Shown here in pieces: positions 2,547-45,739 of a DNA stretch of 45,805 nucleotides. The notes under the pieces are model-generated. The model was not told the DNA's origin. It saw only the letters and a list, made by a program, of their open reading frames with translations, and made no database searches. The translations under genes were made by a program, and so were the position numbers. Position 1 is the first letter of the stretch. Each line of letters opens with the position of its first letter. The stretch lies in the sequence record NC_019718.1; one strand, 5' to 3'. Source of the stretch: Enterobacteria phage vB_EcoS_Rogue1.

Positions 2547-2924
2547 ATGATATGGATTCACACGTACTACACTGGCAAGTTCAATAGCGTAATGCACAAA
2601 CGAATGTATGACAGCTATGAATCAGCAAAGGCACAGCAGGCAGTCCTAGGTGGCGATATTTCAATCTTACAAGAAGGCTTAATCATGTTCGGACTTACTC
2701 AACCACAATTTAATGCAGTTCGCGCCCAAGCTAAGAAACTTAACGAGGCAGTGGATAAGCTGACAAGCAAGCAGAAGCAGGATAATGACATCATGAAGGC
2801 GATTATCTGTGAGTTTCATAGCCCAGTCAGTACAATCATCGAGAAGATGAAGTTTGTTTGGGTTGCAGGCTATCTTGCTGGTCGCGTAGGTAAGCGTGAA
2901 GATGGGGAGCAGATTTATGACTAA
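2547..2924 (+). CDS. hypothetical protein (125 aa)
   Basis: ORF in the same early cluster; start uncertain. Confidence 0.45.
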   Translation: MIWIHTYYTGKFNSVMHKRMYDSYESAKAQQAVLGGDISILQEGLIMFGLTQPQFNAVRAQAKKLNEAVDKLTSKQKQDNDIMKAIICEFHSPVSTIIEKMKFVWVAGYLAGRVGKREDGEQIYD

Positions 2925-3111
2925 ATCACTAGGGAAAGTCAGATGTATTGTGTCTTACAATGATAAGAAGTTCAAAACTGGTAAATCTTACAGCATTTTG
3001 TCATCACCCGCATATGGTTGGGTTAAATGTGAGTCAGAAGATGGGTGTATAGAGATGGTTAAAGATGGCAATGACATTGAGTTTGGTTACTTTGAGGTAT
3101 TTTATGACTGA
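2917..3111 (+). CDS. hypothetical protein (64 aa)
   Basis: Start refined to an ATG overlapping the upstream stop (ATGA). Confidence 0.4.
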   Translation: MTKSLGKVRCIVSYNDKKFKTGKSYSILSSPAYGWVKCESEDGCIEMVKDGNDIEFGYFEVFYD

Positions 3112-3308
3112 GCTATCAATCTGGTTCCTGGCTGGCATGTTGACGTGGATTTATTTCGTCGTCATGGCTTGACGAAAATGTTAAAAGTGGTTAGTATTAA
3201 CCACGTAGACGGCAATGACCGTAACGCGCATCGCGGAGATGCAAGCCGATAGCCGGGCTGGATAAAGATACGAGGCAAATACCACTACACCAGCGCAAAT
3301 GGTGTATG

Positions 3309-34429: not shown

Positions 34430-36373
34430 ATGGAAAACCGATTGAAAACAATACAAAAACAGATTGAAGAATTGGGCGAAGATAAGATTAAAGAGATTCA
34501 AACTAAATTCACCTCTTCTAACGGTATGGTTCCGTATAGCTATCAGTGTGTTATGTACAATGAGATTGCAAAGCGCATTAGTCGCTATGAGCATCCATTT
34601 ATCGCAATGGCTTCAGTTTCTGCTGGTAAGACTCTGGTTTTTGGTATGGTTGCTAAGCGTTGCTCTGAGCTTGGCTTGCCTATGCTTGTTCTTGCTCGTC
34701 AGGCAGAGCTGGTTAGCCAGAATGCTTCTGAGATTTCTGATTACGGGGTTCCTAACTCCATTTATTGCTCTGGGCTTGGAATAAAATCATCTTATTTCCC
34801 TGTGGTGGTTGGCTCTGAGGGCACAGTAGTTGGCGGGCTTAAGAAGTCACTTGGCGATTTCTGTCCTGCGGTAGTTGCTATTGATGAGTGTCACCATATT
34901 GATGACCAGGACATAGCGGAGGCAATTGATAACAATGAGACTGCGCAACAGGCATCAGATAAGGGGCGTAGCCAGTATACGGTCATCATCCTGACTTTAA
35001 TGGAGCGCTGCCGTGCTAAGTATGGCAAGAATCTTCGTATCTTTGGACTGACTGGTTCTCCTTTCCGTGGAACTACGCCAATAGTTGTTGAAAACAAAAA
35101 GGAGTTGGGATTTTGGCGTGAGACGGTCACAAATATCGATACAAACTACCTGGTCGAGTTCGGTTCCGTGGTTCCGACAAACTTTGGTGCTACTGATGGC
35201 GTTGGTTACGACCTCTCAGAGTTTGATGCATCATCTGAAGATGGTGTTCAGGATTACACTAAAGCCCAGCTTGAAGCCATGGATAAAAAGATTCAGGCAT
35301 CTGGAACAATGACAGCGGAGATAATGAAGAAAGTATGGCTTGCCGCGAAAAACAGGAATGGAGTTCTGGTAACATGCGCAGGTGAGCGCCATTGCCACGA
35401 AGCCGCAAGTTACCTTCCTGAAGGTGAAAAGTTCTGCATTATAACTGGAAAGACTGGCGAGAAGCAGCGCAAGGAGTTGCTTGATAAGTGCTTTAGCGGG
35501 GAGATTAAATATTGCTTTCAGGTTCAGGCGCTAACCACTGGCGTAAATGTGCCTACATGGGATACAAGCGTTATTCTGCGTAAGATTGGTAGCCTTACGC
35601 TCCTGGTTCAGCTACTTGGTCGAGGAATGCGTAAGCTTAAGAAGCTCCATGAAGATAAAGGAATGGTCAAGAATGACCATTTGGTACTGGACTTCGCAGG
35701 AACGATGGACTCTATGGCATCATTGTACTTCAATCCAATTCTTGAGCAGGCTCAATATCAGCTACGAAAGAGTAATGGCAAGGAGACTAAGCAGTGTCCA
35801 GTATGCGGAACAGAGAACAGCTTCTTTGCTCGACGTTGCATGCATATTGATGAGAATAATAATCGCTGCGAATATTTCTGGGTTAGTCGCACATGTGAAG
35901 ACCAGAAAGACCCACGAACCGGAAAGGTTATCGTTAAAGGCTGCGGAGTTCAGAATGACGTTGCAGCTAAGATTTGTAGGGGTTGCGATTGCACTTTGCT
36001 TGATCCAAATCTCAACTTAAGCGGCAAACATTACCGCAAGAACGACTGGTTTGATGTTGTTGACTTTAAGGTTGGGCTAACAAAGAACCAATCAGGAATC
36101 ATCTACAACTACATCCTTGATGATGGCATGGGTGGGACATTCAAAGCTCATGAGGTTTTCTTTGTAGAGTCTGACCATCGAGTATGTAAAACGCTCTGGT
36201 TGAACAATGGAATTAAAGGTCACGTAGTCGACATGAACGCTAAGCGATATATGGCTGCATATCGCAATGCTCGCAAGATTATGGAGTATGCGCAGTACAT
36301 CCATGCCCCTAAGAGGGTAACTCACCGCAAGACCGCTAAAGGTGGCGATAATATTGCTAATAAGGAGTTCTAA
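34430..36373 (+). CDS. superfamily-2 DNA helicase with C-terminal zinc ribbon
   Basis: Walker A SAGKTLV, DECHH box, QLLGRGMR arginine-finger motif, C-terminal CPVCG...C..C; start refined to the ATG at 34430. Confidence 0.75.
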   Translation: MENRLKTIQKQIEELGEDKIKEIQTKFTSSNGMVPYSYQCVMYNEIAKRISRYEHPFIAMASVSAGKTLVFGMVAKRCSELGLPMLVLARQAELVSQNASEISDYGVPNSIYCSGLGIKSSYFPVVVGSEGTVVGGLKKSLGDFCPAVVAIDECHHIDDQDIAEAIDNNETAQQASDKGRSQYTVIILTLMERCRAKYGKNLRIFGLTGSPFRGTTPIVVENKKELGFWRETVTNIDTNYLVEFGSVVPTNFGATDGVGYDLSEFDASSEDGVQDYTKAQLEAMDKKIQASGTMTAEIMKKVWLAAKNRNGVLVTCAGERHCHEAASYLPEGEKFCIITGKTGEKQRKELLDKCFSGEIKYCFQVQALTTGVNVPTWDTSVILRKIGSLTLLVQLLGRGMRKLKKLHEDKGMVKNDHLVLDFAGTMDSMASLYFNPILEQAQYQLRKSNGKETKQCPVCGTENSFFARRCMHIDENNNRCEYFWVSRTCEDQKDPRTGKVIVKGCGVQNDVAAKICRGCDCTLLDPNLNLSGKHYRKNDWFDVVDFKVGLTKNQSGIIYNYILDDGMGGTFKAHEVFFVESDHRVCKTLWLNNGIKGHVVDMNAKRYMAAYRNARKIMEYAQYIHAPKRVTHRKTAKGGDNIANKEF

Positions 36374-36762
36374 TGGTTAAGGTTTTTCACGACAAAACAA
36401 GCACGGACAAGGCTAAAGAGGTTGTTCACCAAATAAATTCAATAGCTTGGGTTCGCCACAACCATCCAGAGATATTTGCTTTTCACGTGAAGAATGAAGG
36501 TCTCAAGTCTATCGGCACAGCAATGAAGGACAAGCAGGAGGGAGTAATTAAGGGTGTATCAGATATTCTACTGATTGGACCAAATGGCTTTGCCGCAATA
36601 GAGCTTAAGCGAGCAATAAAATCAGATAGCAAGGTTTCAAAGGAGCAAAAGGAGTTCCTGGAAAAGGTATCAGAAACAGGAGGTTACGCGGCAATCTGTT
36701 ATGGGTTTGAAATGTTTAAGTTGGCAATTACAGATTATCTATCAAATAGCACGAATTGCTAA
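36373..36762 (+). CDS. VRR-NUC domain nuclease
   Basis: 129 aa with D-x(n)-IELK core (ISDILLIGPNGFAAIELKRA) typical of VRR-NUC/PD-(D/E)XK minimal nucleases. Confidence 0.6.
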   Translation: MVKVFHDKTSTDKAKEVVHQINSIAWVRHNHPEIFAFHVKNEGLKSIGTAMKDKQEGVIKGVSDILLIGPNGFAAIELKRAIKSDSKVSKEQKEFLEKVSETGGYAAICYGFEMFKLAITDYLSNSTNC

Positions 36763-36789
36763 AGAGATTTCGCAAGGATGCGATATAGT
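36747..36789 (+). promoter_or_regulatory. palindromic box TAGCA-CGAAT-TGCTA, 22-bp spacer, -10 TATAGT (36784-36789), leader CATCGAAACGAAGAGAGAGA
   Basis: Box overlaps the last codons of the VRR-NUC gene. Confidence 0.55.
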
Positions 36790-36820
36790 TACTTCATCGA
36801 AACGAAGAGAGAGAAACAAA

Positions 36821-37015
36821 ATGAATACTATCTACACTGAAAAGCTGTACAAGTCACGCAAAACTGGTTATGAATATGAATTAGCAATCACCCCTGAGGG
36901 TTATATTCTTGATGATGGAGACGGTTACTCATTCGAAGTTAGCCCAACATACAAAGATGATTTAGAGACTGTTAAAAACGCATTCGGCGAAAAATTTGAT
37001 GAGGTGTCAGAATAA
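36821..37015 (+). CDS. hypothetical protein (64 aa)
   Basis: Start refined to the ATG downstream of the promoter and leader. Confidence 0.5.
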   Translation: MNTIYTEKLYKSRKTGYEYELAITPEGYILDDGDGYSFEVSPTYKDDLETVKNAFGEKFDEVSE

Positions 37016-37233
37016 TGAAATTAACCTTTGATAAGCAATGGGAACTCTTTCAGGCAATGGTGGCGCAGGAGTTGAGTAAGGCTGGATATAAAAATGATGT
37101 TTGGGATTTAGCTTGGTGTCTTGATTATAGTTTCGAAGAGGATTATCTGAACACTGATATCGAAACATGGCGCGACCGAATGATTGCTGATATCGAAGAA
37201 ATGAAGAAAGATTGCCCGGAGGATTTTTCATGA
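37015..37233 (+). CDS. hypothetical acidic protein (72 aa)
   Basis: Translationally coupled (TAATG overlap). Confidence 0.5.
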   Translation: MKLTFDKQWELFQAMVAQELSKAGYKNDVWDLAWCLDYSFEEDYLNTDIETWRDRMIADIEEMKKDCPEDFS

Positions 37234-37430
37234 TTACTGCGACTTGCGTAATGACGAACGGCTCATTCACCCTGCTCAATGAGTATGAATTCAAACTTGA
37301 CCCGATTAATGACCAGGTTGAAATAGTTAGCGATGACGGATTTGCATGGAAGTTACATAATGAATTTGATGGGTACTACGGGTGTAATGATGCGAAAGGT
37401 AAGCATGTAAGTTTTCTTGTTTATGAGTAA
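37230..37430 (+). CDS. hypothetical protein (66 aa)
   Basis: Start refined to the ATGA overlap with the upstream stop. Confidence 0.45.
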   Translation: MITATCVMTNGSFTLLNEYEFKLDPINDQVEIVSDDGFAWKLHNEFDGYYGCNDAKGKHVSFLVYE

Positions 37431-37431
37431 A

Positions 37432-37474
37432 TAGCACTTTTTGTTAAAACTAAAATACAAGGATGGATTATATT
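37432..37474 (+). promoter_or_regulatory. palindromic box TAGCA-CTTTT-TGTTA, 22-bp spacer, -10 TATATT
   Basis: Box family member; leader with GAGAGGG RBS precedes the ATG at 37505. Confidence 0.5.
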
Positions 37475-37504
37475 AATTACATCAGCAAATGAGAGGGTTA
37501 AGAG

Positions 37505-37630
37505 ATGAAAATTATAGACAAAGAGATGTTCGAGATTGCGCAGTCTTTCGCAAATGACGCAGTTAAGACTGGATCTGAATATTGCTGGATGTGCGCTCGA
37601 GAATATTTAAAAATGGCTTACGGCCTATGA
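37505..37630 (+). CDS. small hypothetical protein (41 aa, Cys-x-x-Cys)
   Basis: ATG after RBS; stop overlaps the next start (ATGA). Confidence 0.4.
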   Translation: MKIIDKEMFEIAQSFANDAVKTGSEYCWMCAREYLKMAYGL

Positions 37631-37866
37631 TAGTTGAAACAGGACGCGCCGCTGTATGGGCGCATTGTGGAGAGGCGGGATTGCAGGATGACATCAAGAT
37701 GATAGGTAAATACTTTGATATTGATGACATATCTGTAGTTTTCAATGGGAAGTTTAGTTATATGAACCAGCGGCCACGCAAGTATGTAAGAGTTCCAGCA
37801 ACGCCTAGCCTCGCAATGTATCGTGAGGAAGGTAAGAAGATATTTAAGAAAGGTGCGAAGAAATGA
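37627..37866 (+). CDS. hypothetical protein (79 aa)
   Basis: Start refined to the ATGA overlap. Confidence 0.45.
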   Translation: MIVETGRAAVWAHCGEAGLQDDIKMIGKYFDIDDISVVFNGKFSYMNQRPRKYVRVPATPSLAMYREEGKKIFKKGAKK

Positions 37867-38120
37867 ATTTACCTGGTCTAGATTTTGATGAGAGTAAGTA
37901 TCAGGTTGTGTTTTTTGGTGAGAAGCCTTATCGGAAGATTCCTTTCTCTGAGTGGATTCCTCCGGACTACCTCGATGTACTGGTGCAAATTGAGATTGGT
38001 AAAGCTGAGTTGATGTACTATTCGCCAGGTTGCAATATGATGATGCCTAGTGAGTATTCACCAGCAATTTCTTCTCTAGAAACTGAGTTTCTTGATTACT
38101 GGCTAAAAGAAGTAAAATAG
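37863..38120 (+). CDS. hypothetical protein (85 aa)
   Basis: Coupled ORF (ATGA overlap); stop overlaps the next palindromic box. Confidence 0.5.
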   Translation: MNLPGLDFDESKYQVVFFGEKPYRKIPFSEWIPPDYLDVLVQIEIGKAELMYYSPGCNMMMPSEYSPAISSLETEFLDYWLKEVK

Positions 38121-38160
38121 CACTTTTTGTTAAAACACATCGCCATGGATGGCGTATAGT
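38118..38160 (+). promoter_or_regulatory. palindromic box TAGCA-CTTTT-TGTTA, 22-bp spacer, -10 TATAGT (38155-38160), leader CATCGAAACGAGAGA
   Basis: Box family member; a 22-codon hydrophobic mini-ORF (38188-38256) lies in the leader before the phosphoesterase gene. Confidence 0.55.
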
Positions 38161-38271
38161 GTGTTCATCGAAACGAGAGACGATTCAGATGAAAACATTA
38201 CTACCGTTGATGGCTATGCCATTAACCTTTATAATCATGTACTTCATAATCTGCTAACAGGAAATTAAATA

Positions 38272-39405
38272 ATGGCTATAGCTAAAATCACCAACGAAGA
38301 GTTAAAGCAAGAACTGGCTAACGGTATGACTAACAAGGCAATCGCAGAGAAGTACGGTATGAATATTCGTAACGTAGAGCTGCGTCGCAGCAAGTTGGCT
38401 AAGGCTGGGGATGGTCACGGTCGCGATGTGAGTAACCTAATTCCTCAGGGCTACATGGTTAAAGGTGTATCTAGCCTTGTTGATAATGATGGCAATGTGA
38501 AGTTGCAATGGGTTAAGTCCTCTATTGATGCAGAGAAGCTTGAGGAGATGATGAATCAAGCGCGAGAGGCATTCTCTAGCGAGCTACCAAAAGAAAAAGC
38601 AGTTAAATCTGAAGGTCTGAATTTTGATGAAGATACTTTAGCTATGTATCCAGTATTTGACCTTCACATTGGCGCAATGGCCCACAAGCATGAGTGCGGA
38701 GAAAACTACGACACAGCAACGGCAGAGAAAGTAATGAACGATTATTTTGACTACGCCGTACAGAAATCTCCAAATTCAAAGAATGCTGTACTAGTGCTAG
38801 GAGGTGATCTGCTTCATTATGATTCTTTGGAAGCCAAAACTCCAGCCAGTGGTCACATCCTGGACAGTGACAGTCGCTACGCCAAGATTGTTTATGTTTG
38901 CATTCGAGCGGTTCGCCGCGCAATTCGAAACATGCTTAGCAAACATGAAAACGTAGAGGTTAAAGTTATATCTGGTAATCATGATGAAAGTGGTATGGTT
39001 TGGTTGCGGGCTGCGCTTGCTGCATTTTATGAGGAAGAGCCACGCGTTAGTATTGATGTTAGTCCCGCGGCAATGATGGTAACTAAGTTTGGTTCTACAA
39101 TGCTTGGTTTCACTCACGGGCATCAAATGCGTAAAGCTGATACTCGCCTTTCGGTTATGGCTACTGACTGGCGACGTGACTTTGGTTTAAGTGATTATGT
39201 ATACACCCACTCAGGCCACTGGCATTCACAGAAGATTACAGAGACAAATCTTGGTATTGATGAGGTTCATGGTCAGCTTGGTTCACCAGATGCATATAGT
39301 GCGAATGGTGGATGGCGCTCACAAAGGCAGGCCGCGGTAATCATCTATCATAAAGAGTTTGGTGAGGTTGGTCGCTTTATCTGCCGTCCAGAAATGTTCA
39401 AATAA
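38272..39405 (+). CDS. calcineurin-like metallophosphoesterase with N-terminal HTH-like region
   Basis: Motifs FDLHIG (D-x-H), GGDLLHYD (GD-x-x-D), GNHDE and GHWH in canonical order; N-terminal LKQELANGMTNKAIAEKYGMNIRNVELRR resembles an HTH. Confidence 0.7.
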   Translation: MAIAKITNEELKQELANGMTNKAIAEKYGMNIRNVELRRSKLAKAGDGHGRDVSNLIPQGYMVKGVSSLVDNDGNVKLQWVKSSIDAEKLEEMMNQAREAFSSELPKEKAVKSEGLNFDEDTLAMYPVFDLHIGAMAHKHECGENYDTATAEKVMNDYFDYAVQKSPNSKNAVLVLGGDLLHYDSLEAKTPASGHILDSDSRYAKIVYVCIRAVRRAIRNMLSKHENVEVKVISGNHDESGMVWLRAALAAFYEEEPRVSIDVSPAAMMVTKFGSTMLGFTHGHQMRKADTRLSVMATDWRRDFGLSDYVYTHSGHWHSQKITETNLGIDEVHGQLGSPDAYSANGGWRSQRQAAVIIYHKEFGEVGRFICRPEMFK

Positions 39406-39420
39406 TATCACTTTTTGTTA
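39406..39420 (+). promoter_or_regulatory. degenerate palindromic box TATCA-CTTTT-TGTTA followed by a GC hairpin
   Basis: Abuts the phosphoesterase stop; downstream -10 unclear. Confidence 0.3.
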
Positions 39421-39470
39421 AAGCCCTTCGAGGCTTTTGAGATGCGTCAGCTACAGATATAGGAATCAAA

Positions 39471-39668
39471 ATGATTACAGAGATGATTTTAGTTGCAAGC
39501 CTTTCATCTCCATTGGTATCTCAACAGTATTGTGAACTTGGAAAAGAGATTTACCATGAAGGAGTGGAATTAAGAACGGTTGTTGATTGGCTTAATCACA
39601 GCACGATGAATATTGATGATAAAAAGATTGTCCTTGAGTGCTATATAGTGGAGTCAAATAAAGTCTAA
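39471..39668 (+). CDS. hypothetical protein (65 aa)
   Basis: ATG after AGGAA RBS. Confidence 0.45.
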   Translation: MITEMILVASLSSPLVSQQYCELGKEIYHEGVELRTVVDWLNHSTMNIDDKKIVLECYIVESNKV

Positions 39669-39711
39669 ATAGCACGAATTGCTAAAACGAAAATCAAAAG
39701 ATGGGGTATAG
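39669..39711 (+). promoter_or_regulatory. palindromic box TAGCA-CGAAT-TGCTA, 22-bp spacer, -10 TATAGT embedded in inverted repeat GATGGGG/CCCCATC
   Basis: Box centre is about 42 bp upstream of the predicted transcription start. Confidence 0.55.
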
Positions 39712-39744
39712 TTACCCCATCTAAACAAACGAGAGGATACAAAG

Positions 39745-39930
39745 ATGGCTAAATTCACACAATCAGATGCACAAATCGAAGTTAAAGATGTTGGTTTTGG
39801 TAAGACCTTTAAGATTGCGCAGGCATACGGCTCTAGCGAAGAAGATGTAAAAGTTGACACTATCAATCTTACTGCTAAGAATGCTCGTGAAATTGCCTAC
39901 GCAATCCTAGATGCACTTGGAGAGCGCTAA
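39745..39930 (+). CDS. hypothetical acidic protein (61 aa)
   Basis: ATG after GAGAGGA RBS. Confidence 0.5.
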   Translation: MAKFTQSDAQIEVKDVGFGKTFKIAQAYGSSEEDVKVDTINLTAKNAREIAYAILDALGER

Positions 39931-40118
39931 TGCTTCAAACAATTAAAGCCGACATGGTTAAGGTGGGTGATGAAGTTTTGTTCTTAAACTGCCCACCGCA
40001 GGTAGTTAAGGCTACAAGCCTTGAGTATTACCCTGGCTGTATTTTCGTAATGATTAAGACCATTGGTGGTAACTGCTTCCCAATTAATGTAAACACACTT
40101 ATTTGCGTAAACCGTTAA
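39930..40118 (+). CDS. hypothetical protein (62 aa)
   Basis: Coupled ORF (TAATG overlap). Confidence 0.45.
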   Translation: MLQTIKADMVKVGDEVLFLNCPPQVVKATSLEYYPGCIFVMIKTIGGNCFPINVNTLICVNR

Positions 40119-40130
40119 GAGATTATCAAA

Positions 40131-40304
40131 ATGACTAAATTATTCTGCGTTAGCAACAAATCAAAATCACTGCCTTTCACTGTAAACAACCCTTACAGTG
40201 GTGAGTACCAGGGGGATGGTAATTATAAGATTTATGGCGATGACATGACTTGGATCTTCGCTCCCATTGATGGAGAACTGGTGGAATTCATTATCGCAGA
40301 CTAA
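40131..40304 (+). CDS. hypothetical protein (57 aa)
   Basis: ORF below the track cutoff, found by manual translation; followed by a terminator. Confidence 0.35.
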   Translation: MTKLFCVSNKSKSLPFTVNNPYSGEYQGDGNYKIYGDDMTWIFAPIDGELVEFIIAD

Positions 40305-40331
40305 CTTATAAGAAACATCAACTTGCAAACA

Positions 40332-40356
40332 GGCGGCCTTTATGGCTGCCTTTTTT
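40332..40356 (+). terminator. rho-independent terminator
   Basis: GGCGGCC-TTTAT-GGCTGCC hairpin (one G-U pair) followed by TTTTTT. Confidence 0.6.
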
Positions 40357-40418
40357 CTTTTATGTCAAAGTTTAATATCTGGTATTATTTAATCAAATCA
40401 ACTTAAAGAGGCCGCAAC

Positions 40419-40634
40419 ATGAAGCATTTCTATGACGCAGCCGCCTTGTCCGGTAGCGGAGTAGCTATGGGTGGCGGTTTATCTGACAACACAATCATCG
40501 GCATTATTGGCTTAGTTATCGCCGTATGCTTTGGTATTTTTGGCGCATGGCTGCGCTGGCGTGACAGTAAGGCGCTCCATAAAGCACTTGAAGATGGGGA
40601 TATTCGAGAGGCAATGAGAATCAGGAGTAAATAA
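40419..40634 (+). CDS. holin (probable pinholin)
   Basis: 71 aa; Gly-rich weak TMD then strong TMD IIGIIGLVIAVCFGIFGAWL; charged C-terminus; directly upstream of a SAR endolysin. Confidence 0.55.
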   Translation: MKHFYDAAALSGSGVAMGGGLSDNTIIGIIGLVIAVCFGIFGAWLRWRDSKALHKALEDGDIREAMRIRSK

Positions 40635-43700: not shown

Positions 43701-43744
43701 AATATATCAATTTTTGTTGTTAAGTTCTTTAGCAAAAAGTGCTA
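43701..43744 (-). promoter_or_regulatory. palindromic box (43730-43744) plus -10 TATATT (complement of 43701-43706) and leader CATCGAAACGAAA
   Basis: Box family member in minus orientation. Confidence 0.5.
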
Positions 43745-43861
43745 TTAAAGACCAACCAGACATTTGCCAACTACAACAGCGATTGCGCCCATGAAGCCAA
43801 AGAAACCAAACTTAATTACTTGTTCCATTACCGCATCAACTGCTTTAGAGATGTTTTTCAT
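43745..43861 (-). CDS. small membrane peptide (38 aa; TMD FGFFGFMGAIAVVVG)
   Basis: Start refined to the internal ATG with AAGGTGA RBS; the longer track ORF starts inside the promoter box. Confidence 0.4.
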   Translation of the reverse strand: MKNISKAVDAVMEQVIKFGFFGFMGAIAVVVGKCLVGL

Positions 43862-43898: not shown

Positions 43899-43942
43899 AA
43901 TATACCCGCCGAAGCGGGTACTGTCATTAGCAAAAAGTGCTA
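43899..43942 (-). promoter_or_regulatory. palindromic box (43928-43942), terminator hairpin (43903-43920) in the spacer, -10 TATATT
   Basis: Composite terminator/promoter unit; hairpin TACCCGC-TTCG-GCGGGTA followed by a T-rich run on the minus strand. Confidence 0.5.
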
Positions 43943-45695: not shown

Positions 45696-45739
45696 ACTAT
45701 AGCCTTGCCATCCCCATTTGTCTTTAGCAAAAAGTGCTA
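45696..45739 (-). promoter_or_regulatory. palindromic box (45725-45739) plus -10 TATAGT (complement of 45696-45701)
   Basis: Box family member in minus orientation with 23-bp spacer. Confidence 0.5.

Follow-up and report, generated by a model that had tools for sequence, protein, structure and literature searches.

Bacterial small inner-membrane proteins such as YohP (27 amino acids, aa), KdpF (29 aa), MgtS (31 aa), CydX (37 aa) and AcrZ (49 aa) act by binding larger membrane proteins. Type I toxins, which include Ibs (18–19 aa), ShoB (26 aa) and TisB (29 aa), likewise belong to a class of peptides that act by membrane-protein binding or membrane perturbation. Amongst phage products, the single-gene lysis peptide LysM of phage M (37 aa) and the superinfection-immunity proteins (Pfam Imm_superinfect) act on host envelope proteins. 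Here, we describe three short hydrophobic ORFs (open reading frames) in the genome of Enterobacteria phage vB_EcoS_Rogue1 (NC_019718.1; 45,805 nucleotides (nt), all of which was analysed and is hereafter called the window): ORF1, directly 5′ of a phosphoesterase gene; ORF2, at the end of a chain of small genes; and ORF3, on the minus strand. From sequence comparison, we consider it probable that all three are genuine coding cistrons, each peptide (22, 22 and 38 aa) consisting of little beyond one predicted transmembrane helix. ORF1 and ORF2 are conserved in the Drexlerviridae and almost never annotated, while ORF3 is already known.

Like the small inner-membrane proteins, the peptides would have a lone hydrophobic helix and scarcely any soluble part, and their genes are missed by gene callers and often coupled in operons. 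Unlike them, they are encoded by a virulent phage, show no sequence similarity to the known proteins (Pfam, NCBIfam, PHROGs), and at 22 aa reach the lower limit for spanning a bilayer. The ORFs resemble type I toxins in size, extreme hydrophobicity and a plausible membrane-perturbing activity. However, we found neither a conserved promoter on the antisense strand nor an RNA partner, and the ORFs belong to coupled operons rather than to tightly repressed stand-alone loci. A consensus scan for minus-strand promoters near ORF1, which is weak evidence either way, found none in the window and one in T1 only. The T1 site (L027, 1029–1001, minus strand) is a 10/12 sigma-70-like match, GTGACA-17-GATAAT, at the start of the phosphoesterase gene, and reads antisense into the ORF1 homologue.

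LysM and Imm_superinfect share with the ORFs the character of phage-encoded single-helix peptides, but there is no homology, and the likeness to Imm_superinfect is a hint from position only. A complete holin–endolysin–spanin cassette is present elsewhere in this phage. Finally, ORF1 recalls the ilvL and pheL attenuators and the TnaC and ErmCL arrest peptides, in being a short ORF directly 5′ of a gene with conservation biased to the C-terminus. It differs from these leaders in being hydrophobic throughout and mostly operon-internal, with no terminator or antiterminator, codon run or conserved RNA structure.

Three hydrophobic ORFs lie between genes

The window is essentially the whole genome of a T1-like virulent siphophage (Drexlerviridae, Rogunavirinae, Rogunavirus). 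By megablast, the region 36500–40500 shares 99.7 % identity with Escherichia phage vB_EcoS-BECP10, 99.5 % with vB_EcoS-UDF157lw, and 97–98 % with AHP24, AHS24, AHP42 and related Rogunavirus phages. A census of both strands for ATG-initiated ORFs of 18–45 codons with a mean Kyte–Doolittle hydropathy ≥1.5 returned 12 ORFs. Nine were embedded in other frames of large genes; ORF1, ORF2 and ORF3 alone lay between genes. All three have at most 50 codons, a canonical start codon, and a plausible ribosome-binding site or coupling. ORF1 has a mean hydropathy of 1.86 and ORF2 one of 1.57, and the membrane spans of these two peptides are predicted from hydropathy and charge counts.

These ORFs had been singled out in a preliminary description of the same DNA, most of which we could reproduce. 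ORF1 is present, one base 3′ of the span 38188–38256 first given for it. The span of ORF2 was correct, and its junction with the preceding gene, described as ATGA, is an overlap of 8 nt. The 38 aa ORF3 was also correctly placed, although its strand had gone unstated. A location at operon starts or ends was borne out: ORF1 and ORF3 are each the first Shine–Dalgarno (SD)-preceded ATG past a repeated element, and ORF2 ends its chain of small genes. The placing of ORF1 in the leader of the phosphoesterase gene holds for this window only, since in most relatives ORF1 sits between two genes, joined by start/stop overlaps.

ORF1 is conserved at the peptide level across diverged phages

Relatives of ORF1 were sought in IMG/VR loci (numbered with the prefix L) that encode relatives of the 377 aa phosphoesterase. 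A hydrophobic ATG-initiated ORF of 22–26 codons lies directly 5′ of the phosphoesterase gene wherever the phosphoesterase is at least ~57 % identical, with few exceptions. The lineages concerned are the Rogunavirinae, Braunvirinae (Rtp, JeanPiccard), Tunavirinae (T1, LeonhardEuler), Vilniusvirus (NBD2), TLS-related phages (L059-61, L067) and three other IMG/VR lineages. By tblastn, the three main ORF1 types occur in 27, 62 and 91 INPHARED records, nearly all of them named as coliphages or Shigella phages, and each record that was inspected belongs to the Drexlerviridae.

Between lineages, the DNA identity of ORF1 is 36–67 %, mostly 37–57 %, and the proportion of synonymous differences (pS) is near saturation at ~0.6–1.0, with a proportion of non-synonymous differences (pN) of 0.27–0.67. 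The frame and its hydrophobicity are nevertheless retained in at least seven lineages; peptides of the family have hydropathies of 1.5–2.3 and 0–2 charged residues, mostly near the N-terminus. The C-terminus carries the motif (I/V)(M/L)YF(I)(I/V)M, or F-x-(I/V/L)-(M/L/I)-Y-F-I-(I/V)-M in its nine-codon form. Pooled over the last nine codons, pS is 0.85 against a pN of 0.31, and codons for the conserved Y, F, I and V residues are exchanged for synonymous ones. In the N-terminal block, where the sequence drifts and hydrophobicity is retained, the corresponding values are 0.69 and 0.55.

Conservation of this kind might arise without a gene, if regulatory DNA or RNA (a promoter, or the initiation region of the phosphoesterase gene) were conserved and a hydrophobic ORF appeared by chance in AT-rich sequence. 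A 10/12 sigma-70-like site, TTGATG-17-TATAAT (38207–38235), does lie inside ORF1, and the annotation of AHP42 has a promoter at this position. T-rich second codon positions yield hydrophobic residues, and changes within clades are without strong synonymous bias, as this reading would have it. However, T1 and Rtp have no counterpart of the promoter-like site at the corresponding position, and a promoter was rejected as the cause of ORF1 conservation; shuffled sequence contains more promoter-like matches than the 4 kb around the site. For seven lineages, the 95 nt 5′ of the phosphoesterase gene were also dinucleotide-shuffled 5000 times each, and we counted the shuffles with an ATG-initiated ORF of at least 20 codons that ended no more than 20 nt from the downstream start and was at least as hydrophobic as the one observed. 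The fraction of such shuffles was 0 to 0.0004 in six lineages and 0.0064 in the seventh, so that preserved composition almost never yields an ORF of this type. The ORF1 frame alone is open across lineages, and its amino acid motif is retained through synonymous changes. A non-coding origin of the ORF1 signal is, in our judgement, improbable.

One further candidate homologue, an ORF reading IMYELIM in L011 and L039, was rejected as a chance occurrence, having no start codon and lying inside a repeat/promoter unit.

ORF2 is the best supported of the three probable genes

Judged by its substitution pattern, ORF2 is under strong purifying selection and is the best supported of the three as a gene. 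It was detected by tblastn in 62 phage records, including Braunvirinae at 52–64 % identity. The ratio pN/pS is 0–0.15 in 14 of 15 Rogunavirinae-type pairs and 0.30 in the remaining pair, Sf12 versus phiEB49; across subfamilies it is 0.26–0.58. Variable columns fall at codon positions 1, 2 and 3 in 12, 5 and 16 of 21 cases, respectively. The 12 nt 5′ of ORF2 are wholly different between phages, as the upstream genes differ, and ORF2 itself is retained. Against Opt-79, in which the upstream flank is unrelated, ORF2 shows five synonymous and no non-synonymous changes.

ORF2 is the last of a small-gene chain 5′ of tRNA-Arg. Its ATG (3104–3106) precedes the TGA of the preceding gene (3109–3111), and GAGG lies 6 nt 5′ of the ATG. 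In relatives, this preceding gene is annotated with 65 codons including the stop, corresponding to a 64 aa protein from the ATG at 2917. JeanPiccard ORF2 is coupled on both sides, through ATGAGTGA upstream and ATGA downstream. No relative of ORF2 was found in one genome each of 185,579 bacterial and archaeal species. The Y-F-(I/V)-(I/V) shared by the C-termini of ORF1 and ORF2 led us to consider the two as paralogues, an idea that was set aside as unproven, the similarity being not significant (p ~0.08, local alignment against position-shuffled ORF2 peptides).

Directly 3′ of ORF2, a short plus-strand ORF (3145–3252, especially 3179–3252) reads ...MLKVVSINHVDGNDRNAHRGDASR*. We take the stretch at 3179–3252 to resemble a decayed HNH homing endonuclease fragment, with an H-x-D-G-N...N motif. 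Annotations of the corresponding region in relatives vary, and include fragments labelled as ‘fusion protein’ or as hypothetical.

ORF3 is a known hypothetical membrane protein

ORF3 is a known hypothetical small membrane protein, annotated as AHP42_56 and AKS96_55, with one transmembrane segment by Phobius and TMHMM in AHP42. Residues 1–38 match profile positions 23–60 of the 60 in phrog_11986 (E = 1.3e-26). The gene is confined to Rogunavirus and is 100 % identical in 19 records. The 38 aa form is the likelier one because the versions of 60–62 aa annotated in some records would cross a repeat element.

ORF1 is embedded in a coupled gene arrangement

The phosphoesterase gene is the constant downstream neighbour of ORF1. 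The distance from the ORF1 stop to the phosphoesterase ATG is 14 nt in the window, 9–14 nt in most lineages and 1 nt in L054, and in T1, Rtp, L044, L056 and NBD2 stop codon and phosphoesterase SD merge into TAAGGA. On the other side, the stop of the upstream phrog_4596 gene overlaps or abuts the ORF1 ATG in most relatives, whereas here a 68 nt repeat-bearing spacer separates the two. The junction reads ATGA, TAATG or TAGAATG in T1, Rtp, NBD2, Sf12, phiEB49 and others. ORF1 stays with the phosphoesterase gene both where the upstream gene differs (Sf12, phiEB49) and where a repeat unit is inserted (the window). On the evidence of these junctions, the overlap of the ORF1 start with the upstream stop, and of its stop with the downstream SD, is the usual layout of translationally coupled genes. 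Fusion of ORF1 to the phosphoesterase by frameshifting or read-through was rejected, as the stop-to-ATG offset is 10, 11, 12, 14 or 1 nt depending on the lineage and keeps no constant frame.

The same junctions would suit a purely translational relay, in which ribosomes cross the 70–80 nt of ORF1, end on the phosphoesterase SD and open or load its start, the peptide being a by-product. In most lineages the start overlaps or abuts the upstream stop and the stop is joined to the SD, and wherever ORF1 occurs, the phosphoesterase gene follows it. In addition, the minimum free energy fold in the window pairs ORF1 codons 8–12 with the region of the phosphoesterase start codon, and the T1 and L054 folds bring the start of the phosphoesterase gene together with the start region of ORF1. 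Such start-masking pairings, predicted in three of six lineages, are however non-significant (z = -1.6 to +2.4), lineage-dependent and not conserved. The helix in the window (38211–38224 with 38266–38284) joins UGGCUAUGCCAUUA in ORF1 to UAAUGGCUAUAGCUA at the phosphoesterase start; it reflects the repeated ATGGCTAT (z = -1.6) and is broken in e4/1c and not conserved in other lineages. A relay needs neither an amino acid motif nor constant hydrophobicity, yet both are kept despite saturated synonymous sites. Lineages that lack ORF1 have a shorter spacer with its own SD, and ORF2, with a variable downstream partner or none, is even more conserved. We regard a relay without a functional peptide as unlikely.

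Alternatively, ORF1 could encode a cis-acting arrest peptide in the style of TnaC or ErmCL, whose stalling at the stop codon over the phosphoesterase ribosome-binding site tunes translation. The concentration of conservation in the last 9–10 residues, a length of 22–26 aa that fits wholly within the ribosome exit tunnel, and a stop 9–14 nt from the downstream ATG in most lineages would all agree with this. But the N-terminal half stays hydrophobic while drifting, which a transmembrane helix requires and an arrest peptide does not, and ORF2 has a similar overall design with no constant downstream gene. To our knowledge, the ORF1 motif also contains no proline or other residues typical of known arrest sequences. 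Stalling is thus a very unlikely function of ORF1.

The preliminary description had also offered regulatory leader peptides as a possible identity for these ORFs. In the sense of classical attenuation, with hydrophobic-amino-acid tRNA charging sensed as by ilvL and pheL, the ORFs have a suitably small size and a high content of Ile, Leu, Val, Phe and Met, and ORF1 precedes a gene here. However, none of the three peptides or their homologues contains a tandem run of one residue. The 1–14 nt after the ORF1 stop (14 nt in the window) leave no room for a terminator and antiterminator, no U-tract terminator precedes the phosphoesterase gene, and ORF1 is operon-internal in most relatives while ORF2 stands at an operon end. 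A riboswitch or other conserved RNA structure was rejected too: at the ORF1 region, folds were not more stable than those of shuffled sequences (z again -1.6 to +2.4), and Rfam gave no match except tRNA-Arg. This anatomy effectively refutes attenuation, to which we attach a negligible probability.

Some features of the neighbouring gene and its position should be noted. Residues 1–50 of the phosphoesterase (38272–38420) give weak helix-turn-helix-type matches, to GerE/LuxR (E = 0.038) and to several PHROG transcription-regulator families (E ~0.05–0.14). The phosphoesterase may possess a DNA-binding domain, and we can only speculatively connect this with the repeated element described below. 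In a distant group with phosphoesterases 47–48 % identical (L099, 956–1162, and L102-L108), a 68 aa Imm_superinfect membrane protein (PF14373, E = 3e-12) is encoded directly 5′ of the phosphoesterase gene, as a positional analogue of ORF1. By analogy, this position hints that the ORF1 slot may host membrane-acting accessory genes.

ORF1 and ORF3 occupy the first-gene slot of a repeated intergenic element

The element AGCACTTTTTGYTAA occurs 11 times in the window, against 0.41 copies expected, and each copy starts a few nt from a stop codon. Most units have a TATAGT or TATATT hexamer 21–24 nt past the end of the repeat, often followed by a CATCGAAACGA(G/A)A leader. In all 11 units, the first SD-preceded ATG lies 62–83 nt 3′ of the repeat. 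The element matches a 21 nt direct repeat, aaATAGCACnnnTTGnTAAAA, which has been described in phage TLS ~76 nt upstream of start codons and is said to be present also in T1, Rtp and Rogue1 (PMC11447400); the spacing in the window agrees with this published rule. In the unit at 38119, the SD-preceded ATG in this range is that of ORF1 (+70); the phosphoesterase gene starts at +153. The presence of ORF1 and ORF3 in the first-gene slot of repeat units is independent positional support for both as genes. The repeat itself may serve as a promoter or UP element, an enhancer site or a ‘stoperator’.

Two other units bear on gene starts. In its longest form the helicase ORF would begin at 34379, which falls within a repeat/promoter unit, and an SD-preceded ATG is found at 34430, at +78 from the repeat. 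The latter is the likelier start, and matches the 647 aa annotation of AHP24. Following the repeat at 19334, the first SD-preceded ATG (+70) opens a 43-codon plus-strand ORF, MKINLLCTNAEV... (19404–19535), within a gap of ~320 nt between genes that end at 19331 and start at 19655. This ORF may be another small gene.

ORF1 and ORF2 are missing from annotations and databases

The ORF1 frame is annotated in none of the 11 records inspected (T1, BECP10, UDF157lw, AHP24, AHP42, AKS96, Sadiya, phiEB49, LeonhardEuler, JeanPiccard and NBD2). An overlapping ORF in the wrong frame is called instead as a hypothetical protein in AHP24, AHS24, Sadiya and Opt-79, in 39 aa form, and in AKS96 in a 46 aa version; the 39 aa sequence has entered UniRef and nr. 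This ORF is confined to the Rogunavirus type, whereas the ORF1 frame alone stays open across lineages, and it is probably a spurious call that masks a real micro-gene. ORF2 is annotated in one of six records inspected, as the N-terminally extended 44 aa ‘putative membrane protein’ Ec3a_13.

An exact-sequence look-up amongst ~15 billion predicted proteins found neither ORF1 nor ORF2, nor the T1 and Rtp versions, while the wrong-frame 39 aa ORF and ORF3 were both present. ORF1 and ORF2 had no significant match in PHROGs, Pfam or NCBIfam; DUF6341 was rejected for ORF2 (18.5 bits against a cut-off of 26.4). The 27-codon gene encoding TLS Gp05, described in the TLS paper, was considered and found to be unrelated. 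No published report of these ORFs was found in the literature searched. Common gene callers apply a minimum gene length of ~90 nt (~30 codons), and ORF1 and ORF2 are likely to be unannotated because they fall below this floor.

Table 1. Coordinates of features in the Rogue1 window, and representative peptides of the ORF1 and ORF2 families
Feature	Position	Strand	Description
ORF1	38189–38257	+	22-codon hydrophobic microprotein gene, MKTLLPLMAMPLTFIIMYFIIC; stop TAA (included); evidence from homologues, shuffles and substitution pattern
ORF2	3104–3172	+	22-codon hydrophobic microprotein gene, MTELSIWFLAGMLTWIYFVVMA; 8 nt overlap with upstream stop, ATGACTGA
ORF3	43745–43861	-	38 aa small membrane-protein gene, MKNISKAVDAVMEQVIKFGFFGFMGAIAVVVGKCLVGL; SD AAGGTG
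Gene upstream of ORF1	37863–38120	+	85 aa, phrog_4596
Phosphoesterase (‘DNA repair exonuclease’) gene	38272–39405	+	377 aa; phrog_704, E = 1.7e-155; weak Metallophos match
Phosphoesterase SD	38259–38264	+	AGGAAA; begins 1 nt past ORF1 stop
Gene preceding ORF2	2896–3111	+	phrog_10885
Repeat copy 5′ of ORF1	38119–38133	+	AGCACTTTTTGYTAA; T1-like ‘direct repeat’, just past the stop of the upstream gene
Putative -10-like hexamer	38155–38160	+	TATAGT; 21 nt past the end of the 15 nt repeat, 22 nt past TTGTTA; from by-eye alignment of 11 units
Leader	38166–38180	+	CATCGAAACGAGAGA; common to several repeat units
SD-like purine run	38175–38180	+	GAGAGA; 8 nt 5′ of ORF1 ATG
Wrong-frame ORF	38149–38268	+	39 aa, MAYSVFIETRDD...; overlaps ORF1, starts 5′ of the -10-like hexamer
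Repeat copy 5′ of ORF3	43927–43941	-	AGCACTTTTTGCTAA; 80 nt upstream of ORF3 ATG (+80)
Repeat copies, plus-strand starts	1188, 12050, 19334, 34352, 37433, 38119, 39407	+	
Repeat copies, minus strand	26497–26511, 43729–43743, 43927–43941, 45724–45738	-	
ORF1 peptide, window type			MKTLLPLMAMPLTFIIMYFIIC
ORF1 peptide, e4/1c			MKTLLPLLAVPVTFIIMYFITC
ORF1 peptide, Rtp type			MKSLILVALVPLFSFTILYFIVMN
ORF1 peptide, T1			MKLYFAVVLTPLISFSVMYFIIM
ORF1 peptide, NBD2			MKLILAIVLPPVIGFILMYFIVM
ORF1 peptide, L044			MFGYFGVVFTPVIAFTLIYLIVM
ORF1 peptide, TLS-related			MRYI(Y/S)VILLPPVIAWVIMY(A/S)VVMN
ORF1 peptide, L054			MWRLFALPFPVIIATAIMYKIIMLGA
ORF1 peptide, L056			MRYALIPLATLIAVVALFQTIMIYN
ORF2 peptide, Rogunavirinae			MTELSIW(F/L)LA(G/A)(M/I)LTWIYFVVMA
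ORF2 peptide, Rtp, EC3a, JeanPiccard, DTL			MSELTIWFIAGLI(T/A)W(A/G)YF…

Discussion

The ORFs exist, their placement is not due to chance, they are conserved at the peptide level and lie in a coupled arrangement, and they lack the features of attenuators. The explanation that we favour is that ORF1, ORF2 and ORF3 would be expressed like other genes of tightly packed operons. In this phage, the SD-like GAGAGA downstream of a repeat-element unit would serve to start ORF1 translation; T1, Rtp, NBD2 and other relatives would instead rely on re-initiation where ORF1 meets the upstream gene, at ATGA, TAATG or a comparable junction. With the ORF1 stop on or next to the phosphoesterase SD, ribosomes could then pass to the phosphoesterase gene, and ORF2 would be coupled to its upstream gene through the ATGAsTGA overlap. 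Once released, the peptides may become inserted post-translationally in the inner membrane of the host, each as a single helix, and there act in trans, through binding to a membrane protein of the host or phage or through disturbance of the membrane. The suggestion of membrane-active microproteins in the preliminary description is consistent with the conservation of the peptides across diverged phages and with the uncharged hydrophobic stretch of ~20 residues predicted in each.

Several observations weigh against this explanation. Within close clades, ORF1 shows a mixed synonymous/non-synonymous pattern, with an uncorrected ratio of ~0.1–0.8, which implies that selection on its N-terminal part acts mostly on hydrophobicity and not on sequence. 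ORF1 is absent from TLS (L066) and L064, where an HNH endonuclease gene stands immediately upstream of the phosphoesterase gene (that is, of position 1201). It is also absent from L011 and L039, where a repeat unit drives the phosphoesterase gene directly, and from AAS23-like phages and a ~54 kb group. In the TLS-related locus L058 (~1135–1210), a TAA interrupts ORF1 at codon 3, although four close relatives are intact. The loss or replacement of ORF1 in several lineages indicates that it is dispensable over evolutionary time. Furthermore, the GAGAGA that serves as the ORF1 SD in the window is weak, and selection on ORF3 is not measurable because all 19 copies are identical. It should also be noted that we infer the translation, membrane insertion and molecular target of the peptides.

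The constant association of ORF1 with the phosphoesterase gene leads us to speculate on a more specific role, to which we assign a small probability: ORF1 might be a dedicated partner of this Mre11/SbcD-like phosphoesterase. The peptide could be a 22 aa membrane anchor holding the nuclease at the inner membrane or controlling it there, or a cis-acting nascent peptide that gates its translation. Older work reportedly found membrane-associated DNase activity for T4 gp46/47. If either version were true, ORF1 would be a hitherto unseen regulatory subunit of a phage DNA-repair nuclease with conservation from T1 to Rogunavirus.

T1 and its relatives, classical phages with many sequenced genomes, are used in therapy too. 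Even so, two conserved genes have apparently been missed in well over 100 deposited genomes, and several records instead carry a probably spurious call in an overlapping frame, which has been propagated. The value of these findings lies in better annotation and in a testable pair of microprotein families, which offer concrete targets open to simple mutation, rather than in a new biological principle. As small phage membrane peptides, the products of these genes are candidates for a part in host takeover, superinfection exclusion or lysis timing.

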